Below are positions 43,062 through 52,487 of a DNA stretch of 64,000 nucleotides, piece after piece. Made by a program: the position numbers and the translations under genes. The notes beneath the pieces were generated by a model. It searched no databases, was not told the DNA's origin, and saw nothing but the letters and a program-made list of their open reading frames with translations. Position 1 is the first letter of the stretch. Every line of letters starts with the position of its first letter. Source of the DNA: an uncultured Chlamydiales bacterium (GTDB lineage Bacteria > Chlamydiota > Chlamydiia > Chlamydiales > Rhabdochlamydiaceae); assembly GCA_963700985.1 (NCBI GenBank), contig OY969554.1:1-64000 (forward strand), given 5' to 3'.

Positions 43062-43439
43062 ATGAATAAGAAATTAATGAACATGGCTCTTGGCCTCGGA
43101 GCTTGTGTTTGCCTGTTTTCTGGTGAACTATCAGCTTGGGAAAGATCTGCGATGAGCGATTGCAAACAGGATGAATCTGATTGCAAAAAAGAAGCGAAAG
43201 GCTGCACAGATGACAAAGGTACTTGCAAAAAGCAAGCTGAGCAGTGCAAAAAAGATGCAGAAGCCTGCAAAAAATCTGCACAAATATCAGATGAGACCTC
43301 ATTTATGAATGCGCTGTCTCCTTATTCAAAATCGCAATTTCAGAAATTTTCTCCTGATCAAAAGAAGAAAGCTATGGATATGGCTGATGGCGCAAAAATA
43401 TCACCAGATGATGCCGTTACAAAAGTTATGAAGAAATAA
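43062..43439 (+). CDS. Small exported protein with six Cys at 7-residue spacing
   Basis: Signal peptide ending ELSA; CKQDESD-CKKEAKG-CTDDKGT-CKKQAEQ-CKKDAEA-CKK; RBS GGAG; terminator downstream. Confidence 0.8.
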   Translation: MNKKLMNMALGLGACVCLFSGELSAWERSAMSDCKQDESDCKKEAKGCTDDKGTCKKQAEQCKKDAEACKKSAQISDETSFMNALSPYSKSQFQKFSPDQKKKAMDMADGAKISPDDAVTKVMKK

Positions 43440-44157: not shown

Positions 44158-44180
44158 AAGGGATGTTTGAAACATCCCTT
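44158..44180. terminator. Bidirectional terminator between aquaporin and NHLP-1
   Basis: AAGGGATGTT-TGA-AACATCCCTT flanked by A-rich and T-rich tracts. Confidence 0.7.
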
Positions 44181-44186
44181 ATTTTG

Positions 44187-44459
44187 TCAGCAGGGGAAGA
44201 ACCAAGATGCTATGCCAGCTGCAGCAATTTGTTTCAGATTCGCGTCGTCAAGCTCGCCGATATTTGATGGAGCAGGTGGAAGTACAAAAGTGAAATGACG
44301 CGCGTCGTCTTGCTGGATGCGCACTTCGCTGTTTTCAGGAATATTGTAACCCATTTCTTTTAGCGTTTCTGTTGGCTTGGCTATGAGTTTTTTGCGAAAA
44401 GCTGGATCTTTCCAAGCTTTAGCGATGATTTTGGCTCTAATTTCATCGTCTTTTGCCAT
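44187..44459 (-). CDS. NHLP-leader RiPP precursor 1 (predicted core IASWFFPC)
   Basis: IIAKAWKDPAFRKKL..P..L..G..IP..FVLPPAP..ELDDANLKQIAAAG; RBS GAGGAG; start ATG 44459. Confidence 0.88.
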   Translation of the reverse strand: MAKDDEIRAKIIAKAWKDPAFRKKLIAKPTETLKEMGYNIPENSEVRIQQDDARHFTFVLPPAPSNIGELDDANLKQIAAAGIASWFFPC

Positions 44460-44665
44460 AAAGTTTCTCCTCATTAAGGGTTAGAAGCGTGTATGCCTCG
44501 GTGTAGCTAATCCTTCTATTTATATAAAGATATTTCAAATTTCAGCTTGGCCCCCTTTTTCCACGGTGGTGCTAATGCAGCGCTCATTTTCACGGCAGCT
44601 AGTTTCTAAAACACTTGCCATTTGTCCCCTCTTAGTTATTATGAAAAAAAACTAGGTGAGGATTT

Positions 44666-45859
44666 ATGCGACTTAATTTGGGCTCAATTGCATTCCTGTT
44701 TCTAACTTGCATGGGTCAAGTCGAAGCAGTAGAAGCCGCCGGAAATTCTCAAGCTAAACGGGTCGTATCCGAAATCTTATCTCAGGCCGATATTCAAATT
44801 GATGGCACGCGTAATTGGGATATCACCGTCCATAATGAAGCCTTTTATAACCGCGTTTTAAAAGATCAATCGCTAGGCTTTGGCGAAGCTTATATGCAGG
44901 GCTGGTGGGATAGCGAGGCGCTGGACGAGTGTATCTTTCGCATCTCAAGAGCTAATCTCGACAATAATATAAGACCGACCATGGCTATGCGCTGGGCTGT
45001 TCTCAAGGCTAAACTCTTCAATCAGCAGACAAAGAAAGGCAGCATGGAGGTCATCGACATTCACTATCAGCTGGGCAATGATCTTTTTGAGCTGATGCTC
45101 GATGAACTCATGACCTATAGTTGCGGCTATTGGAACAATGCAACCACTTTAGATGAAGCTCAACGCGCTAAGTATGATCTGATTGCACGTAAGCTTGGTT
45201 TTAAGCCTGGCATGCGTGTTCTCGACATCGGCTGCGGTTGGGGCGGTTTTTCTAAATTTATTGCCCAAAACTATGGCGTTGAAGTTCTGGCCATTACGCT
45301 TTCTGAAAACCAAGCCGAATATGCGCGCAAAGCTTGCGCGGGATTGCCTGTAGAGGTTCGCGTGCAAGATTATCGCGATGTGCAAGGCAAGTTCGATCGC
45401 GTGGTTGAGATCGGCATGTTTGAGCATGTAGGCGAGAAAAATTACCGCGAGTTTATGGAAATTACACATCGCTGCTTAGAGCCAGATGGCATGTTGATGC
45501 TGCATACCATTGGCACGAACGTCTCTTCTGTTACCTGCGAGGCGTGGATCGATAAGTATATTTTCCCAAAAGGGCACCTTCCCTCAATTGCTCAAGTAGG
45601 CACCTCTATCGAGGGGTTATATGTGATGGAAGATTGGCACAACTTTAGCACCGATTATGACAAGACCTTGATGGCCTGGTTTCAGAATTTTCATGAAAAC
45701 TGGGATCTGATCAAAGAATCCTATCCACCTGCGTTTTATCGGATGTGGAAGTATTATCTTCTCTCATGCGCAGGCGCGTTTCGCGCGAGACAGATCCAAC
45801 TCTGGCAAGTAGTTCTCTCCAAGGAAGGTGTTCTCGGCGGCTATAAAACCGTTCGATAA
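44666..45859 (+). CDS. cfa: Cyclopropane-fatty-acyl-phospholipid synthase with N-terminal signal-like extension
   Basis: SLGFGEAYMQGWW, HYQLGNDLF, MTYSCGYW, VLDIGCGWGG, GMFEHVG, WIDKYIFP, RMWKYYL. Confidence 0.93.
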   Translation: MRLNLGSIAFLFLTCMGQVEAVEAAGNSQAKRVVSEILSQADIQIDGTRNWDITVHNEAFYNRVLKDQSLGFGEAYMQGWWDSEALDECIFRISRANLDNNIRPTMAMRWAVLKAKLFNQQTKKGSMEVIDIHYQLGNDLFELMLDELMTYSCGYWNNATTLDEAQRAKYDLIARKLGFKPGMRVLDIGCGWGGFSKFIAQNYGVEVLAITLSENQAEYARKACAGLPVEVRVQDYRDVQGKFDRVVEIGMFEHVGEKNYREFMEITHRCLEPDGMLMLHTIGTNVSSVTCEAWIDKYIFPKGHLPSIAQVGTSIEGLYVMEDWHNFSTDYDKTLMAWFQNFHENWDLIKESYPPAFYRMWKYYLLSCAGAFRARQIQLWQVVLSKEGVLGGYKTVR

Positions 45860-45921
45860 CAACTCATTGGAGAGCGATAAAAGAATAAGTTATGTGTTTT
45901 ATCCTTGTTGTAAACAGATGC

Positions 45922-46203
45922 TTACATAGATAGATGTCCACATAGGACTTCGCCGCCAGCAGCCGCAACTCGCCTCAGGTTCGCTTCATCGAGTTCACCT
46001 ATGTTGGTTGGAGTAGCAGGAAGCACAAAAGTGAAATGACGCGCATCGTCTTCTTGAACACGAACTTCAATCTTATCAGAAATATTGTAGCCCATCTCTT
46101 TTAGCGTTTCTTTAGGCTTAGAGATGAGTTTTTTGCGAAAAGCTGGATCTTTCCAAGCTTTAGCGATGATTTTGCCTCTTAAATCTTCATTTTTTTTTGC
46201 CAT
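45922..46203 (-). CDS. NHLP-leader RiPP precursor 2 (predicted core GEVLCGHLSM)
   Basis: Same leader; ELDEANLRRVAAAG; RBS AGAGG. Confidence 0.88.
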   Translation of the reverse strand: MAKKNEDLRGKIIAKAWKDPAFRKKLISKPKETLKEMGYNISDKIEVRVQEDDARHFTFVLPATPTNIGELDEANLRRVAAAGGEVLCGHLSM

Positions 46204-46255
46204 ATGGCCTCTCTTTGTTGAGTGTTTATTTCCTTTTTCAGAAAATCATTAATTT

Positions 46256-46543
46256 TTATAAATCAAGCCCGGTTGTGAAGGCGTGTTGTGCCTGGCCAGC
46301 CGCAGCAATTTTTAATAATTGCTCGTCGTTTAATTCTTTGATTTGAGTTGGAATAGGAGGCAATACAAAAGTGAAATGGCGCGCGTCATCTTCCTGGATA
46401 CGTACTTCCATATTATCTGCAATACTGGTGTAGCCCATCTCTCTTAGTGTCTCTTTAGGCTTAGAGATGAGTTTTTTGCGGAAAGCTGGATCTTTCCAAG
46501 CTTTAGCGATGATTTTGCCTCTTAAATCTTCATTTTTTGCCAT
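46256..46543 (-). CDS. NHLP-leader RiPP precursor 3 (predicted core QAQHAFTTGLDL)
   Basis: Same leader; ELNDEQLLKIAAAG; RBS AAGGAG. Confidence 0.88.
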   Translation of the reverse strand: MAKNEDLRGKIIAKAWKDPAFRKKLISKPKETLREMGYTSIADNMEVRIQEDDARHFTFVLPPIPTQIKELNDEQLLKIAAAGQAQHAFTTGLDL

Positions 46544-46683
46544 AAAGTTTCTCCTTTTTAGGGTTGTAGTGCATGCATACTTCGGTGTAGTTGATCTTTC
46601 TATTTCTATAAAGATATTTCGAATTTTTGCTTGACCCTGCTTGATTTTTTGTTTACGGTCTTTCCGCTAAAATTCGAGATGCT

Positions 46684-49600
46684 ATGCGGAAATTTCTCTT
46701 TCTTTCCCTCATGTTTGCTGTGCGCGTAATGGCCGATCTTAAAGATCCCTCCGTGCTAGCAGCAACGGATGGCGATCCACAAGTTACAGTTAGCCAGCAT
46801 GTAAATGCATTAACAGGCGACTTTACGCGCTTTCAAGATGATTATGTCGTTCCTGGCATAGAGCCTATTTCCATTCGGCGCATCTATGTTAGTGGTGATG
46901 GCGCGGGGGAGAACACCTGGCAGTTTTTCCCTCAGACAAAGCTCTTTTTTCTCACAGGTTCTTATACGCCACGCATTGTGGTTGGTCAGCCCTCAGGATC
47001 TTTTCTCACTTATAAGTTTAAAAAGCATCGCAAGCCCGATATCTATTTGCCCGATCTAGAAAAGCATGGCAAAGGCGTTACGAATACAGCGCACGGAGTG
47101 ATTTCGGGACGGACGAATTTTAAAAATAGCAAGGTGGTTCAACTGCGCAACACGCTCTATCAGCTGACGTGTGCAGACGGCACCGAGAGGGTTTATAAGA
47201 ATAAAAAAGGAGAGGGCATAAAAAAATATCTATTAGAGCACGAGCGTCTGCCAAATCGAAATCAGATTTTCTACGAATATGACGATAAATTAAGACTCAC
47301 CTTAATCAAAACCACCAATCCATCCGCCAGTAAAATCTATGCATGGGCGCGTTTTCGCTACCTTGATCAGAAAGAGCCTTCTGCCGACTTCAACATCGAG
47401 ACGAGCGATGGGAAAGTGCTGGAATATCGTTTTGCGAAAGAAGGAAATGAGCAGATTGGGTTTCACACCTTTCTAAAATCGGTTAATCCTCCTGAAAAAC
47501 CAAAAGAGATCTTCGAATATTCGAAGACAGGTAATTTTATGAAAAAGATCTTTTTTCCTGAAGGAAGAGAGATTCTTGCCGATTATTATAAAGGTGGTAA
47601 AAACACCGTTCTTGGTCGAGATGTCAAGCTTAATCCCAATGACTCACGTAATGGGCGTGTTAAGATTCTCTACGAGCAAGTAGGCCCTAATAACGAACAG
47701 ATCGGCGCCAGCTATTTTTTCTATTCGATTCCCAGAGAAGAGAAGCATGGAGAGTATTTCTATAAAGAGGGGACAACAGAGGTTGTAGATGCAATGGGAT
47801 GTAAAACGATCTTTCGTTTTACCCCATCTTTTTATCCTACCTCCATTGAGAGCTATGATGAGCGTGGCCAGCATCATCATTCTGTGCAAATGACATGGAA
47901 TCACATCGGAGAAATCCAACGTAAAACACTTTTAGACGCAGATCGAAAGGAGGTTTGGACCCGCGAATTTTTCTATGATGAAAAAGGAAATGTGATCGAA
48001 GAGAGATTTAGCGGTGATCTCTGTGGCAGGGGGCAAAGAGAGACATACAGCAAGCGCATAAAATACACGCCTAACCATCTCCCAACTCGTATTGAGGAAG
48101 ATAATGGTTCAGTTACACTCTTTTCTTATCTTGCAGGCACGCCATTTATCACCGCGCAGCTTCAATGCGAGGGAGAGAAAATTCTGAAACGGGAGTTTCA
48201 TGAGTATGATGCAGATAATCTGCTGGTGCGTACGATTAGCGACGATGGCAATAGTTCTGAAAAGGAAAATCTAACTGCGGTTACCTACCGCAAGATCACA
48301 CAGATTCAGCGCAAGCAAGCAGCGCCAGCTCTCGGATTTCCCGAAGTAATCGAGCAGAGATATCTAGACCTAGCTTCCTCAACGGAGGTGCTGTTAAGTC
48401 GGCAGACTTTCACCTATCAAGGCGATGGCAAGCTGAGCCGACGAGATATTTATGATGCAGAGGGTAACTTTTGTTATAGCCTGCATACAAGCTATGACTC
48501 GATGGGGCGGCCATGCGAAGAGTCTAATCCTCTTGGCCAAATTCAAAAAACTAGATACGACGTTTTTGGAAACCCCACCTATCAAGAGAGCTTTAGTGGG
48601 CAGCTCACCACAGAACTTGTCTATGACAAAGCGAATCGTTTATCTCATGCTAAAGAGGTTGGTCGGGATGGCCTCATACATATCAATCAGTTTTCCTATG
48701 ACGTGAAGAGCCGAAAAACAGCTGCAATTGATCATTTTGGAAACATCACTCACTTCAAACTTAACCCGATTGGCAGCAGCCTAGAAACACATCTTCCTGA
48801 AGCTGCTCCCTGGAAGATGCAAACAACTTCTAACTTCGATGGATTAGGCAGAGAAATTGTAAAAATCGATGAGCGCGGAGATGCGACTAGATTTTCATAT
48901 AACGCCTATGGAAAACCCACGCGCATTCTCTATGCAGATGGTTCTGCCGAGCAGTTTTTTTATGATAAAAATGGAGCGTTAGCCGAAAAGCTTGATCAGC
49001 GTGGCAGCATTACAGCTTTTACATATGACGTATTTGGCCGAGAAGTAGAAAAGCGCATCTATGATGAAAAGCGTGCGCTGCTGATTCAAGAGACGAGCAA
49101 GTATAAAGGTGATCTGCTTGTGCAGCATGTAGATGCAGTTGGGCACGAGATGCGCTATCTATATGATTTCGCTGGCAGACAAATTGCTCAGGAAAATGAG
49201 TTTCAGCGCATTGAATATGCGTATGATGCCTTGGGGCGAAAGCGCAAGACTTTGACCTCAGATGGAAACCACACGCTTCACAGCATAAAAGAGTATGATT
49301 TCTTAGAGCGCGTGCTTGAAGAGCGTTGTGAAGATGACAGCGGCCAAGTTTTGAAAAGAGTTCTCTATGATTATGATGCAGCGGGCAATAAGTCTTGTAT
49401 TACGCGGTTCATGAGCGGTAGGGAAAGCCAAGAGCGTTTTTTCTACGATGCATTTAATCGCCTCATTGCACAAGTGGATGCCTCCGGTAATAAAACAACC
49501 ATAGAGCAAGATGAAACCTATCGAAATGCACAGACGCAGCAAGTCTTAAAAAAGATTACCACCGATGCGCGTGGCATGCACACCTATGAGACGTTTGATT

Positions 49601-51966
49601 CACTCGGACGCGTGGTGCGCACAGAGAGCAGAAGCTCCAAAGGAGAGCTTGTCTCTTTTGAGAAATTCTTTTACGACGCAGGCGGCAAACTCTGCAAGCA
49701 AGATGGCGAGCTTGTTACTCAAGGTACTCCACATTCTGTAGTTACTACGCTTTGGGAATATGGAGTAATGGGAAGGCTGCTTAGCTTAACCGAAGCTGCC
49801 CATAAACCAGAACAGCGCATAACCCGTTATACCTATGATGCAGCCGGTCTTTTGCATGAGATTATTAAACCCAACGGCATAGTTCTAACGCATAAATATG
49901 ATGTGCTGGGACGGCGCATACGCCTCAGCTCTTCTCAGCCGTCTATTGATTATAGTTATACCTATGACGCGCTTGGACGCATGATCGGCATCAGAAATGA
50001 ATATACTCAACAAGCTACGAGCCGAGAATACGATAAGCGGGGCTGTCTGATTGCAGAAACCCTCGAAACAGGCGTTCCTATGACATATAGCTACGATCCG
50101 CTGGGAAGGCGCACTAACCTCCAATTTATCAACAAATCAGGCGTAGCTTACAAATACGATGCGCTATTTCTGCGTGAGGTCACGCGTTTGGCTAAAGATT
50201 CAACGATTAGCTATGAGCATCGTTACCTTACTTACGACGAGGCAGGCAACCTGCTTGACGAACAGCTTCCTTACACCCTCGGCATGCAAACACGCGACAT
50301 AGACATTCAAGGGCGAACGGTTGCGCTGGATTCGCCTCATGCGCATTTTGCAATTACCGCATTTGACCCAACAGGCAATATTTTACAAACGCGCACATCT
50401 CAAGAAGAGCGTGCCTTTGCCTACGATGACCTTTCTCAGCTTGTATCTGAAAAAGAGCACAGCTATGTCTATGACTCGCATAACAATCGAGTGCAGCAAG
50501 ATCGAGATGCGCATACGCTCAACGCCTTAAACGAACTGGTTAAAACGCCTAACGCAACATTTACTTACGATGCTTGTGGCAATCCGCTCACTCAACAAAC
50601 AGCTGAAAGGACGATCAATTATAAATATGATGCCCTAGATCGCCTAATTGAAGTGCTCTTTCCTTATCAGATGGGGCTTTTGTTTACCTATGACGGGATG
50701 CATCGGCGGCTGACCAAAGAGAAATATGTCTGGGACGGAAGTGCTTGGCAAAGAGAATCTCTCGTTTTTTACATGTATGATGATCAGAATGAAATTGGCA
50801 TGTTGAATCCCAAAGGGGAAATCAAGCAGCTGCGGATTTTGGGACGAGCCAGCAGAGCCGAAGCCGGCGCTGCCATCGCCATAGAACTCGATGACACTGT
50901 TTACATTCCTCAACATGATCTCTTTGGCAACGTGGCCAGCTTAATCTCGCCTATATCAAACGCTAAGGTGGAATCTTATGATTATACTGCCTTTGGCCAA
51001 GAGATTTTGCCAGCGCATGCGCAAAGCGCATTGAAAAACACTTGGAAAAATCCTTGGCGCTATCAATCCAAACGCATCGACGAAGAAACCGGCTTAGTGC
51101 TCTATGGACGCCGCTACTACATGCCTTCACTTGGTCGCTGGCTGACTAACGACCCCAAAGGACATACAGCTCTTAGCAGCCTCTACGCTTTTTGCAGCAA
51201 TAACCCGCTGACACATTTCGACCTCTACGGCCTGGAAGATCTCGTCGAAGAAGAAAGGAACATGCCGCAATCGGAAAGTTCCTTTTTTTCTAAAGTTGGC
51301 TCGTTTGTCTCCTCTTGCGCACGCGATGTTGCTTCTTTTTTCTCTGAATGGTCTAATAATTATACAATCGATGCGCCTATGAGTGAAAACTGCGGCATTG
51401 GGTACATTAATGGAATTAATACGACCTATGCTGAAGCACGCGAACACGCACTAATGCTAAGCGGCTTTTCTGGTACCTCCATTAATCTGACGCACAGCGC
51501 TTCGCATGGCATACAAAATGATCTTCCTTGCTGTGTTTGGGAATATATTGGTGGGGTTACTCTAGGCAAGAGTCTTTTGCAAAAAAACTGGGATAAATTT
51601 CTCGACACCGCTCCTGAAGAGGCAAAATATTTGCAAATTTGCACAAGCGGTGGATGCATTGAATTATATAATGCTTTGGAAAGTTCCCCTCCTGAAGTGA
51701 GAAACAGAATCAAGGTTTTAGCAATTGCACCAGGAAAAATCATCCCTACAAATTTATGTTATCAATCGGAAAATTTCATGAGTAAACGAGACATTGTTCC
51801 TCGGCTAGATCTTTTCGGCCAGGTGAGATATAGAGGTCAGTTGATCATACTTGAACCTCACGATGATGCTGATTCTTTTGATCATTCAATTATGAGTCCA
51901 ACTTTTCGTCCCATCATTCGATCTCGAATTGCAAGTCACATTGAGAACAACCGAGGTAAAAAGTGA
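46684..51966 (+). CDS. RHS/YD-repeat polymorphic toxin with signal peptide and alpha/beta-hydrolase-like C-terminal domain
   Basis: Many YDxxGR repeats; core end PWRYQSKRIDEETGLVLYGRRYY..GRWLTNDP..NNPLTHFDLYGL; ~243-aa C-terminal tip. Confidence 0.93.
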   Translation: MRKFLFLSLMFAVRVMADLKDPSVLAATDGDPQVTVSQHVNALTGDFTRFQDDYVVPGIEPISIRRIYVSGDGAGENTWQFFPQTKLFFLTGSYTPRIVVGQPSGSFLTYKFKKHRKPDIYLPDLEKHGKGVTNTAHGVISGRTNFKNSKVVQLRNTLYQLTCADGTERVYKNKKGEGIKKYLLEHERLPNRNQIFYEYDDKLRLTLIKTTNPSASKIYAWARFRYLDQKEPSADFNIETSDGKVLEYRFAKEGNEQIGFHTFLKSVNPPEKPKEIFEYSKTGNFMKKIFFPEGREILADYYKGGKNTVLGRDVKLNPNDSRNGRVKILYEQVGPNNEQIGASYFFYSIPREEKHGEYFYKEGTTEVVDAMGCKTIFRFTPSFYPTSIESYDERGQHHHSVQMTWNHIGEIQRKTLLDADRKEVWTREFFYDEKGNVIEERFSGDLCGRGQRETYSKRIKYTPNHLPTRIEEDNGSVTLFSYLAGTPFITAQLQCEGEKILKREFHEYDADNLLVRTISDDGNSSEKENLTAVTYRKITQIQRKQAAPALGFPEVIEQRYLDLASSTEVLLSRQTFTYQGDGKLSRRDIYDAEGNFCYSLHTSYDSMGRPCEESNPLGQIQKTRYDVFGNPTYQESFSGQLTTELVYDKANRLSHAKEVGRDGLIHINQFSYDVKSRKTAAIDHFGNITHFKLNPIGSSLETHLPEAAPWKMQTTSNFDGLGREIVKIDERGDATRFSYNAYGKPTRILYADGSAEQFFYDKNGALAEKLDQRGSITAFTYDVFGREVEKRIYDEKRALLIQETSKYKGDLLVQHVDAVGHEMRYLYDFAGRQIAQENEFQRIEYAYDALGRKRKTLTSDGNHTLHSIKEYDFLERVLEERCEDDSGQVLKRVLYDYDAAGNKSCITRFMSGRESQERFFYDAFNRLIAQVDASGNKTTIEQDETYRNAQTQQVLKKITTDARGMHTYETFDSLGRVVRTESRSSKGELVSFEKFFYDAGGKLCKQDGELVTQGTPHSVVTTLWEYGVMGRLLSLTEAAHKPEQRITRYTYDAAGLLHEIIKPNGIVLTHKYDVLGRRIRLSSSQPSIDYSYTYDALGRMIGIRNEYTQQATSREYDKRGCLIAETLETGVPMTYSYDPLGRRTNLQFINKSGVAYKYDALFLREVTRLAKDSTISYEHRYLTYDEAGNLLDEQLPYTLGMQTRDIDIQGRTVALDSPHAHFAITAFDPTGNILQTRTSQEERAFAYDDLSQLVSEKEHSYVYDSHNNRVQQDRDAHTLNALNELVKTPNATFTYDACGNPLTQQTAERTINYKYDALDRLIEVLFPYQMGLLFTYDGMHRRLTKEKYVWDGSAWQRESLVFYMYDDQNEIGMLNPKGEIKQLRILGRASRAEAGAAIAIELDDTVYIPQHDLFGNVASLISPISNAKVESYDYTAFGQEILPAHAQSALKNTWKNPWRYQSKRIDEETGLVLYGRRYYMPSLGRWLTNDPKGHTALSSLYAFCSNNPLTHFDLYGLEDLVEEERNMPQSESSFFSKVGSFVSSCARDVASFFSEWSNNYTIDAPMSENCGIGYINGINTTYAEAREHALMLSGFSGTSINLTHSASHGIQNDLPCCVWEYIGGVTLGKSLLQKNWDKFLDTAPEEAKYLQICTSGGCIELYNALESSPPEVRNRIKVLAIAPGKIIPTNLCYQSENFMSKRDIVPRLDLFGQVRYRGQLIILEPHDDADSFDHSIMSPTFRPIIRSRIASHIENNRGKK

Positions 51967-52487
51967 GAAATAAATTCGGTTTTGGCTTTGTGTTGGTTGT
52001 GTTTTTGGCATTTTTTAGTTGTCGAGATTCATATAAACCGCATGTAGCTGAAGAAATTGTTGATCAAATGACTTATCCGATTGCTAAGCAGCTTTATGAA
52101 CAAAAAGAGCTATATCAGATAGGTAGTGGTGGAAGGATAGCTAATGATGTAGAGAAGCTTTCCTTAAGCTTTATGTTTTACCATGAGGTAAATGAGGAGC
52201 AAGCGCGCGAGCTCTTACTTAGCGCTTCTCAGGAATACCTTTCCGCCATCAATAACAATGAGAAGCTCCAGCCTTATCTCTATCATCGACCTTTTAAAAT
52301 TGAAGACATAGAAATTAGTGTCTTTTTTCTTAAGCCTGATCGTTCGGAAGTTCCTCCTCCAGACATTTATGTAGCAGAGGTTAGAGATGGAATGTTTGTT
52401 TATAAAGTTGACGATCTTCAAAACAACACCCTTAAAACAGTTCTCAAAGAAACCTACGAAGAGGCGCTCAAGAATAACGCGGGTTAA
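51963..52487 (+). CDS. Putative lipoprotein immunity protein for the RHS toxin
   Basis: GTGA overlap with RHS stop; hydrophobic signal ending FFSC; the immunity role is inferred from position. Confidence 0.7.
   Translation: MRNKFGFGFVLVVFLAFFSCRDSYKPHVAEEIVDQMTYPIAKQLYEQKELYQIGSGGRIANDVEKLSLSFMFYHEVNEEQARELLLSASQEYLSAINNNEKLQPYLYHRPFKIEDIEISVFFLKPDRSEVPPPDIYVAEVRDGMFVYKVDDLQNNTLKTVLKETYEEALKNNAG

Follow-up and report, generated by a model that had tools for sequence, protein, structure and literature searches.

The window, by which we mean the whole stretch of 64,000 nt that was analyzed, contains three paralogous precursor genes on its minus strand, W1 (44187..44474), W2 (45922..46203) and W3 (46256..46543), as the original prediction had claimed. 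W3 (95 aa) and W2 (93 aa) are the first and second genes of a tandem with a spacer of 52 nt. The start of W1 is probably the second ATG, at 44459, giving a product of 90 aa, because an AGGAG lies 8 nt upstream of this codon and because it aligns with the W3 start. The reading frames of all three genes are intact and are accompanied by RBS-like sites. Directly after the W1 stop codon (44187-44189) we found a bidirectional terminator-like hairpin with a 10-bp stem and a T run (44158..44180), which is common to W1 and a convergent aquaporin-like gene. Alignment of four upstream regions revealed a 19-nt motif, GAAATATCTTTATATAAAT, located approximately 60 nt before the W1 start (44518..44536, minus strand), which is a candidate shared promoter or operator; the same motif, GAAATATCTTTATAGAAAT, was found by alignment and genome-wide scanning upstream of W3 (46602..46620, minus strand). 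Allowing at most 1 mismatch, the genome-wide scan located the motif only ahead of W1 and W3 and in the intergenic region between M7 (one of the paralogues described below) and the LanM gene, and shuffled genomes gave 0 matches at up to 2 mismatches; these figures are to be read with the fact that the motif was built from sequences that are themselves among its matches. Its conservation could also reflect common descent rather than regulation. A match with 2 mismatches at 748,267 and two nearby with 4 mismatches are antisense within coding regions and were taken as chance, as was the single match to a known RNA element at the locus, a sub-threshold miRNA model (26.3 bits vs. 60). A scan for sigma-70-like promoters returned 3 sites, compared with 5.2 expected, and was thus uninformative.

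We examined the leaders of the three proteins in the context of known families. All exceed the curated cutoff of TIGR03793, the NHLP model (68.1 bits for W1, 75.0 for W2 and 67.5 for W3, against 50.9), and the NHase_alpha model (PF02979) matches each protein in two stretches. NHLP was the best model for these ORFs, and no match to Nif11 (TIGR03798) was listed for them at E ≤ 0.1. The W2 and W3 leaders are 69% identical to that of W1 over their full length and share with it an invariant block, KIIAKAWKDPAFRKKLI; the leaders are thus conserved as described earlier, the wording "near-identical" being slightly generous. None of them contains a Cys, and therefore the CxxCSC metal site of NHase is absent, as had been proposed. 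An L(x)4L segment, which C39 domains reportedly contact (PMC12715784), is found in all three. At the nucleotide level, identity is 0.48-0.62 across the leader, drops to 0.25-0.31 on reaching the junction with the tail and stays at this random level beyond it. Judged by their sequences, W1, W2 and W3 are genuine RiPP precursors of the NHLP-leader type, in which a variable core follows a conserved leader, in agreement with the original prediction.

The predicted junction is Ala-Gly rather than Gly-Gly (Ala-Ala in the paralogue M1), and the tails that follow the AAAG in the three ORFs are unrelated and 8-12 aa long, which bears out the earlier description. The W1 leader ends in ...NLKQIAAAG at 44214 and is followed by the core IASWFFPC (44190-44213); the W2 and W3 cores would be GEVLCGHLSM (45925-45954) and QAQHAFTTGLDL (46259-46294), respectively. 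In W2, cleavage could equally occur after AAAGG, a true Gly-Gly, leaving the 9-aa core EVLCGHLSM. Tails of 8-12 aa occur in all 10 close paralogues of the genome and, when 11 external homologues are included, in 21 of 21 members of this leader subtype. Under a null model of stop codon occurrence, the chance of a tail in this range is 0.13-0.14 per gene and about 1e-9 for all ten. In addition, cores are partly kept between orthologues, with 9 of 10 residues retained in the M3/P0010 pair, 6 of 11 in M6/P0004 and 5 of 10 in M2/P0008, pairs whose leaders agree at 75-77 of 82 positions. Such a constraint on length, together with the conserved orthologous cores, argues that the tails do not vary merely by drift of the stop position, an outcome that had been named as fatal to the precursor interpretation; as far as can be read from the genes, tail lengths are under constraint. 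Among the 11 closest external homologues there is no orthologue of W1, W2 or W3, all 11 having an M copy as their best match, and cross-strain conservation is therefore shown for the cluster copies only.

The window contains no YcaO, LanM or C39 domain, as had been noted, and the genome search placed the sole copies of each at 1.85-1.87 Mb; none of the 8 radical SAM matches in the genome falls within the window. A search for NHase beta gave no match, with a control that was equally silent. A search with the NHLP HMM over the whole 2.07-Mb genome, as had been suggested, returned 12 genes, of which three are in the window, seven (M1-M7) lie at 1.854-1.858 Mb and two divergent ones at 1.437-1.439 Mb, and a lax six-frame HMM scan of the genome revealed no further copies. 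The seven M genes are part of a 25-kb enzyme locus (1,848,012-1,873,347) located 1.8 Mb from the window along the contig, or approximately 238 kb should the single contig represent a closed circle. This locus encodes a YcaO (PF02624, 237.6 bits) and a LanM (TIGR03897, 817 bits), both single-copy in the genome, a TfuA adjacent to the YcaO (PF07812, 151 bits), a ThiF/MoeZ-like E1 that includes a rhodanese domain, and a ThiS/MoaD-like carrier whose C-terminus is GG. M1-M6 begin 32 bp after TfuA. The zinc motifs of the LanM are WCHG and CCG, the latter at residues 868-870; CCG is considered to set apart promiscuous enzymes of the ProcM type, for which precursor genes can be dispersed across the genome (PMC8524650). 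The three NHLP export families are all represented above their cutoffs in the genome, outside the window, by a C39-peptidase ABC transporter (TIGR03796, 930.6 vs. 853.3 bits) that holds the sole C39 domain in the genome, a second ABC subunit (TIGR03797, 714 vs. 709 bits) and an HlyD protein (TIGR03794, 189 vs. 156.2 bits), and a TolC-like outer membrane protein is also encoded at the locus. The original prediction would have been undermined had no genome carrying the family possessed a candidate maturase or exporter, and here LanM, YcaO and the C39 ABC transporter are found in the same genome. Two side observations concern this locus: the TfuA has a C-terminal extension of approximately 240 aa, for which an atlas search returned only long-TfuA clusters at 0.76, a weak lead, and a relic of a leader-end-plus-core cassette lies behind M6.

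In the leader phylogeny, W1-W3 share a well-supported clade with M1-M7 (95/92), within which W1 is the sister of M5 (89/83); the cores of both contain Ser-x4-Cys. The leaders show a median dN/dS of 0.125 over 45 pairs, with values of 0.06-0.25, at dS of 0.6-2.9, for the pairs that include a W copy. We found NHLP precursors in 51 of 400 sampled Chlamydiota genomes, in as many as 13 copies. TfuA and LanM are both encoded in each of the three genomes of the genus that have NHLP genes, and in the sister genome G031 the genes for TfuA, YcaO, ThiS, E1, LanM and NHLP precursors are contiguous. In sister genomes, the leader clade of the W and M copies adjoins LanM and is associated with Cys-rich cores, and a different leader clade (99/94), of which the present genome has no member, abuts YcaO-TfuA. 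The W and M leaders may or may not be accepted by the YcaO-TfuA pair. A complex of YcaO with W3, modeled with both partners given as alignments, scored 0.00 in two runs, for which controls were not folded, a score that speaks neither for nor against an interaction.

Taken together, these results lead us to propose, with a probability of roughly 0.7, that W1-W3 are functional satellites of a 10-copy NHLP family whose maturation and export genes would all be provided by the single distant 25-kb locus. This reading draws on the family membership of the three proteins, the presence and uniqueness of the enzymes, the phylogeny of the leaders and the selection acting on them, the restricted range of tail lengths and the common upstream motif. 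It fits the earlier suggestion of a peptide library processed by a promiscuous enzyme encoded elsewhere; a ProcM-like LanM coexists with 10 precursors of one leader clade. The suggestion of a possibly undescribed system did not hold, since LanM, YcaO-TfuA and the three NHLP transport families make up a conventional NHLP locus in the same genome; these enzymes lie outside the window, and a reading confined to the window therefore over-called novelty.

If the satellites are served by this locus, the conserved leader of approximately 82 aa, with a structured NHase-like nucleus and the acidic L(x)4L segment, would recruit the enzymes in trans. The LanM would dehydrate Ser and Thr residues and close a thioether where a Cys is available, which predicts a lanthionine ring for W1 through its Ser-x4-Cys, as in its closest paralogue M5, and W2 may qualify as well. 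Only three of the 10 cores (W1, W2 and M5) contain both Cys and Ser or Thr; Cys is missing from the W3 core, and the M2 and M3 cores lack Ser, Thr and Cys altogether. The family is thus not accounted for by LanM alone. The YcaO-TfuA pair, supplied by the ThiS-like thiocarboxylate carrier and the MoeZ-like E1, may install backbone thioamides, and ThiS-type carriers together with the TfuA hydrolase constitute a described sulfur route of thioamide-forming YcaOs (PMC13063428). Thioamides would matter most for cores lacking Cys, such as W3, whose predicted fate is dehydration and/or thioamidation. The C-terminal Ser-x4-Cys-COOH of W1 resembles the C-terminal rings of thioamitides; the idea of an AviCys ring in W1 was rejected, however, and rings of this type are unlikely because the genome has no HFCD/LanD-type flavoprotein decarboxylase (0 matches to PF02441, with the control search positive in 14 of 14 reference genomes). 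The C39-peptidase ABC transporter would cut after the Ala-Gly of AAAG, a double-glycine-type site, and with the second ABC subunit, HlyD and the TolC-like protein would export peptides of 8-12 residues.

Alternatively, as the original prediction had also suggested, the peptides may be exported unmodified, with the leader acting as a secretion signal for the C39 ABC transporter and the products being linear 8-12-mers, bacteriocin-like or used in signaling. The complete NHLP export set of the genome is compatible with this, as are the M2 and M3 cores without Ser, Thr or Cys and the W3 core without Cys. Backbone thioamidation requires no particular side chain, however, and Cys-free cores are therefore no evidence against modification. 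Moreover, a structured leader of 82 aa far exceeds the needs of export alone, and LanM, YcaO, TfuA, ThiS and E1 are kept beside NHLP genes in at least two genomes of the genus, so that we regard unmodified export as unlikely. One might also view the window copies as orphaned and disused duplicates, left by rearrangement in a variable region. The window locus does sit in a rearranged region, the sister genome G112 has the same neighbors without NHLP genes, and orthologues of W1-W3 were not found among the 11 closest external homologues. Disuse is, however, difficult to reconcile with intact frames that retain RBS-like sites and a terminator, with leader dN/dS values of 0.06-0.25 at dS of at least 0.6, with tail lengths inside the narrow 8-12 range of the family and with the conserved upstream motif, and we consider it improbable.

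The genes next to the precursors were also considered, as the Cfa gene had been put forward as a candidate maturase. A separate and undescribed chlamydial system, in which Cfa or another local gene would be the maturase and which would be functionally tied to the RHS toxin, has physical adjacency in its favor and nothing else. The Cfa protein is a clear cyclopropane-fatty-acyl-phospholipid synthase equivalog (579 bits vs. a cutoff of 400), and the W leaders do not differ in type from those of the precursors within the enzyme locus. Since G112 retains both Cfa and RHS in the same neighborhood without any NHLP gene, their adjacency to the precursors is incidental, and we judge such a system to be highly improbable.

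The presence of the enzymes outside the window settles the case of an apparently enzyme-less peptide family, which is notable mainly for its very short products. We additionally entertain a more specific and rather doubtful idea, in which a leader type used by LanM in sister species has undergone rewiring here and feeds an ultra-short, mostly Cys-free core library to both LanM and the YcaO-TfuA-ThiS-E1 module. If this were true, genes that are dispersed but regulated together would give an obligate intracellular bacterium a set of tiny peptides carrying thioamides, dehydrated residues or thioethers, and new cores would arise through duplicated leader-end-plus-core cassettes. A library of 10-residue cores that share one leader and lie beside both a thioamidation module and a promiscuous LanM would offer a compact natural platform for the study of leader-guided, core-dependent modification, and its peptides could play a part in competition within hosts that other microbes also inhabit. 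We found no paper in the searchable literature that treats Chlamydiae and NHLP together. Likewise, no paper on a chlamydial RiPP was found among the lanthipeptide gene-cluster literature as judged by titles and abstract openings, and the supplementary cluster lists of PMC8120280, PMC6511847 and PMC10676384 could already include chlamydial or LanM plus TfuA clusters.

The arrangement of W1-W3 resembles that of the prochlorosins (ProcM/SyncM with ProcA), and by its gene content this is a known kind of system with a predicted chemistry. As described for prochlorosins (PMC8524650), there is one LanM with a CCG motif, there are many precursors with a long conserved leader and unrelated cores, some of them remote (here three of 10), and a C39 ABC transporter is predicted to perform both cleavage and export. 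The leader is NHLP here and Nif11 there, the host is chlamydial rather than a marine cyanobacterium, the cores are only 8-12 aa with a thioether possible in three of 10 (in W1 and W2 but not in W3), and the locus additionally houses a YcaO-TfuA thioamidation module that has a sulfur relay of its own.

Compared with the NHLP family as defined by Haft, Basu and Mitchell (2010; PMC2887384), the precursors agree in HMM membership and in the missing NHase metal site, the similarity to NHase alpha flanking a deletion that removes the CxxCSC site in W1-W3 as well. They also agree in having a hypervariable tail after a double-glycine-type site, in paralogous expansion, in the co-occurring transport trio and in the association with LanM, which that work reports for some genomes. 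Remote, paralogously expanded precursors are likewise known from NHLP and TOMM systems and from prochlorosins (PMC2887384, PMC8524650). The system differs in its Ala-Gly junction, in cores much shorter than the average of 26 residues given for LanM-adjacent NHLPs (PMC2887384) and in that the genome has no cyclodehydratase/dehydrogenase (TOMM) set with this leader type. With the YcaO-TfuA thioamidated RiPPs (thioamitides, thiovarsolins) it shares adjacent YcaO and TfuA genes, a ThiS-like carrier and an E1; nearby precursors are a common feature for the cluster copies M1-M6, the window copies being remote. NHase-like precursors beside TfuA were predicted earlier in Actinobacteria (PMC6511847). 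Thioamitides differ in possessing the HFCD/LanD-type decarboxylase that is missing from this genome, and dehydration would here come from a class II LanM in a system known from its genes alone. Proteusins, which combine NHLP precursors with a radical SAM epimerase, differ in that none of the 8 radical SAM matches in this genome is clustered with the precursors or lies beside a RiPP locus, the nearest being approximately 14 kb from the T1/T2 locus. As a side observation, a 363-aa protein with a prenyltransferase fold is a candidate for prenylating T1/T2 on Tyr-containing cores. The dehydrazoles are similar in combining an NHLP leader, a YcaO and a DUF4135-containing enzyme with core-dependent modification (PMC10676384). 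Their YcaO, however, makes azolines and is accompanied by a dehydrogenase, and their LanM-like enzyme lacks the zinc ligands (PMC10676384), whereas the YcaO described here is TfuA-associated with no dehydrogenase nearby and the LanM keeps its CCG zinc site.

The three NHLP-leader precursor genes of the window are confirmed. Open reading frames W1 (44187-44474), W2 (45922-46203) and W3 (46256-46543) are present on the minus strand as originally predicted, and they score 68.1, 75.0 and 67.5 bits, respectively, against the curated TIGR03793 cutoff of 50.9; Pfam NHase_alpha is matched in two stretches by each. They share an invariant leader block (KIIAKAWKDPAFRKKLI ... DDARHFTFVLP), and the leader ends at AAAG, as had been proposed, followed by unrelated tails (cores) of 8, 10 and 12 residues. 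For W1, the second ATG (44459) is most likely the start codon, given the AGGAG upstream and the match to the W3 start. W3 and W2 lie in tandem with a 52-nt spacer, and W1 is solitary with a terminator-like hairpin directly after it. The maturase and exporter genes reported missing are indeed absent from the 64-kb window, and no nitrile hydratase beta match was found in it either.

The window opens a single contig of 2,067,302 bp, of which it covers the first 64 kb. A TIGR03793 search identified 12 NHLP genes in the genome, comprising the three in the window, seven (M1-M7) at 1,853,930-1,857,547 and two divergent ones (T1 and T2) at 1,437,079-1,438,963; no others were found in a permissive six-frame scan of the genome. 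M1-M7 are embedded in a locus with modification and export genes, encoding an NHLP-specific ABC permease/ATPase (TIGR03797, 714 bits vs. a cutoff of 709.4), a YcaO protein (best NCBIfam match the McrA-glycine thioamidation type, under that model's cutoff), a TfuA-related protein, a MoeB/MoeZ-like E1 carrying a rhodanese domain, a ThiS/MoaD-like protein ending in Gly-Gly and a type 2 lanthipeptide synthetase (LanM; TIGR03897, 817 bits). Beyond an NRPS-like gene lie a C39-peptidase ABC transporter (TIGR03796, 930.6 bits vs. 853.3), an NHLP HlyD protein (189 bits vs. 156.2) and a TolC-like protein. YcaO, LanM and the C39 domain each occur once in the genome. The genome thus encodes candidate maturases and an exporter, and the refutation put forward originally, their absence from every genome carrying the family, does not apply. 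The original prediction of a new, enzyme-less system is not supported, as candidate LanM, YcaO-TfuA and exporter are encoded outside the window in the same genome, while its alternative, processing in trans by a promiscuous enzyme encoded elsewhere, is supported. The interval between LanM and the C39 transporter (L013:14676-20000 and L015:1-1974, corresponding to G000:C1:1860676-1867974) also carries a phosphopantetheinyl transferase, a thiolase and the 1807-aa NRPS-like gene, in which one adenylation core motif, two carrier-protein motifs and one thioesterase-like motif (GWSMG) are recognizable. This stretch may belong to a pathway of its own, or may supply a lipid or amino acid to the peptides.

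A tree built from 47 leaders, taken from this genome and from five relatives, places all ten W and M leaders in one clade (support 95/92), with W2 and W3 (92/69) and W1 and M5 (89/83) as sister pairs. Leaders are under purifying selection (median dN/dS 0.125 over 45 pairs), and pairs that include a window copy have dN/dS of 0.06-0.25 at dS of 0.6-2.9, indicating that the window copies are old but maintained. A 19-nt motif is common to the upstream regions of W1, W3 and M7, the last of which shares the intergenic region holding its copy with the divergent LanM gene. At up to 1 mismatch, the motif occurs only upstream of these three genes in the whole genome, and at up to 2 mismatches it did not occur in five shuffled genomes; a degenerate copy lies upstream of M6. 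These matches suggest that W1, W3 and M7/LanM may be co-regulated, although the motif was derived from the very sequences it matches and conservation by descent is possible.

The tails might vary only through neutral drift of the stop codon, and we weighed this against the behavior of the sequence at the junction. Nucleotide identity anchored there falls from 0.48-0.62 in the leader to 0.25-0.31 right after it and stays low downstream. This is less than the ~0.46 expected from leader synonymous divergence (mean pS 0.54), which argues that the tails were replaced or are diverging faster than neutral. Tails are 8-12 aa long in all ten W and M copies, compared with a null expectation of 0.13-0.14 per gene, and 9-12 aa in the 11 closest external homologs. 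Three pairs of orthologs of cluster copies show cores evolving faster than leaders, with length and C-terminal residues kept: core and leader match at 9/10 and 77/82 residues for M3/P0010, 6/11 and 75/82 for M6/P0004, and 5/10 and 75/82 for M2/P0008. Such fast core and slow leader evolution is typical of RiPPs. W1-W3 have no ortholog among the 11 external proteins, so for them this conservation is indirect evidence. Directly 3′ of the M6 stop and out of frame is a relic cassette (L013:9526-9588, minus strand; G000:C1:1855526-1855588), in which 30 nt match the M6 leader end at 27/30 positions and lead into an alternative but related core of 10 aa, QGHVIGVDAL, with its own stop. The relic is evidence that leader-end-plus-core cassettes are duplicated.

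The LanM zinc motifs are WCHG and CCG, the latter described as a distinctive mark of promiscuous ProcM-like LanM enzymes, whose precursors can be spread over unrelated loci (PMC8524650). In two relatives, G031 and G336, the W/M-type leader clade adjoins LanM and has Cys-rich cores, and a second leader clade (99/94), with Cys-free cores and no member in the present genome, adjoins YcaO-TfuA. Among the ten W and M cores, only those of W1, W2 and M5 combine Cys with Ser/Thr, and all three residues are missing from M2 and M3. LanM by itself thus cannot explain the family. As M1-M6 lie between TfuA and E1, thioamidation is the obvious candidate for a second route; a ThiS-type carrier with a TfuA hydrolase is a described sulfur supply for thioamidating YcaOs (PMC13063428). 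W1 is predicted to acquire a Ser3-Cys8 thioether, with the same Ser-x4-Cys spacing as M5; a Cys5/Ser9 ring is possible for W2, and the changes predicted for W3 are Thr dehydration and/or thioamidation. As the genome has no HFCD flavoprotein, W1 is unlikely to carry an AviCys ring at its C-terminus. With no radical SAM gene nearby, the system is not of the proteusin epimerase type.

A functional link between the precursors and the neighboring Cfa and RHS genes had also been proposed. The Cfa is an ordinary cyclopropane-fatty-acyl-phospholipid synthase equivalog, which argues against a maturase role. A genome of the same genus, G112, retains the order PhoH, Cfa, small Cys-rich protein, RHS, and no NHLP genes were found in it genome-wide. 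The adjacency is incidental: the region is variable, and the precursors have either entered it or been lost from it. The 1760-aa RHS-repeat protein, whose C-terminal part is DUF687-like (E 1e-6) and which has an ortholog in G112, is followed with a stop/start overlap by a 174-aa ORF without a family match (together 46684-52487) that could be an immunity partner. At 43062-43439 lies a predicted secreted protein of 125 aa, rich in Cys-Lys-Lys repeats (CKQDESDCKKEAKGC...), also without a family match, which has a 119-aa homolog in the syntenic region of G112.

T1 and T2 (cores DDYFPH and GEGPSDYISDKYIHYGK) lie outside the window at L014:7079-10090 (G000:C1:1437079-1440090); downstream of each is a gene for a protein of 363 or 373 aa. 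These proteins have no sequence matches in Pfam, NCBIfam or PDB and belong to a family of 478 representatives at E <= 0.001. An AlphaFold model (pLDDT 90.5) matches only ABBA aromatic prenyltransferases (probability 1.00, TM 0.4-0.57), including DMATS1, CymD, Orf2/NphB and FunA. An NHLP gene adjoins all five family members among the sequences examined, with Tyr/Trp-rich cores next to four. They are likely a family of leader-dependent peptide prenyltransferases, for which MppC, acting with Nif11 leaders, is a known analog (PMC12715784).

Simkania, Rhabdochlamydiaceae and "Chlamydiota bacterium" supply the closest named YcaO homologs (50-56% identity), followed by Cyanobacteria (45-47%); the genome also encodes a TLC ATP/ADP transporter, so that assigning it to the chlamydiae is reasonable. 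Even sampling of the phylum gave NHLP genes in 51 of 400 genomes (39 of them above cutoff), TfuA in 8 of 401 and LanM-like matches in 28 of 400 (13 above cutoff), with NHLP genes also present in 6/8 TfuA genomes and 8/13 full-LanM genomes. The only genomes combining all three features are the three members of this genus that carry NHLP genes, and neither TfuA nor LanM was found in other multi-copy genomes, G252 (13 NHLP copies), G387 (7) and G084 (6). A third leader clade (96/92) with Cys-rich cores adjoins proteins of ~740-750 aa (L052, L057 and L062, in G031, G336 and G387), presumed from size and context only to be fused cyclodehydratase/YcaO TOMM enzymes; NHLP leaders in this phylum would thus pair with at least four kinds of partner. 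Proteins of ~180-230 aa in G113, G315 and G252 (L039, L041 and L026) have tandem double NHLP leader-like domains, one GG site and a long Ser/Gly/Thr-rich core, with about seven such genes consecutive in G113. Stand-alone proteins of ~500-540 aa matching only the N-terminal dehydratase half of LanM (DUF4135), without a cyclase domain, occur in G231, G334, G264, G313, G053, G060, G049 and others.

NHLP leaders, hypervariable cores and paralogous expansion, as well as remote precursors, an export trio and LanM or cyclodehydratase partners, were anticipated by Haft et al. (2010) and the prochlorosin literature, in which every element of the present finding is foreseen. NHase-like precursors beside TfuA were predicted earlier in Actinobacteria (PMC6511847). 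In the literature searched, we found no paper joining "Chlamydiae" and "NHLP", and, judged by titles and abstract openings, those that mention both LanM and TfuA did not appear to describe a cluster of this kind. Dehydrazoles also combine a YcaO/LanM-like hybrid with an NHLP leader, but with different enzymes (PMC10676384). The present system differs from known ones in its host phylum, in how short its cores are and in combining LanM with a putative thioamidation module.
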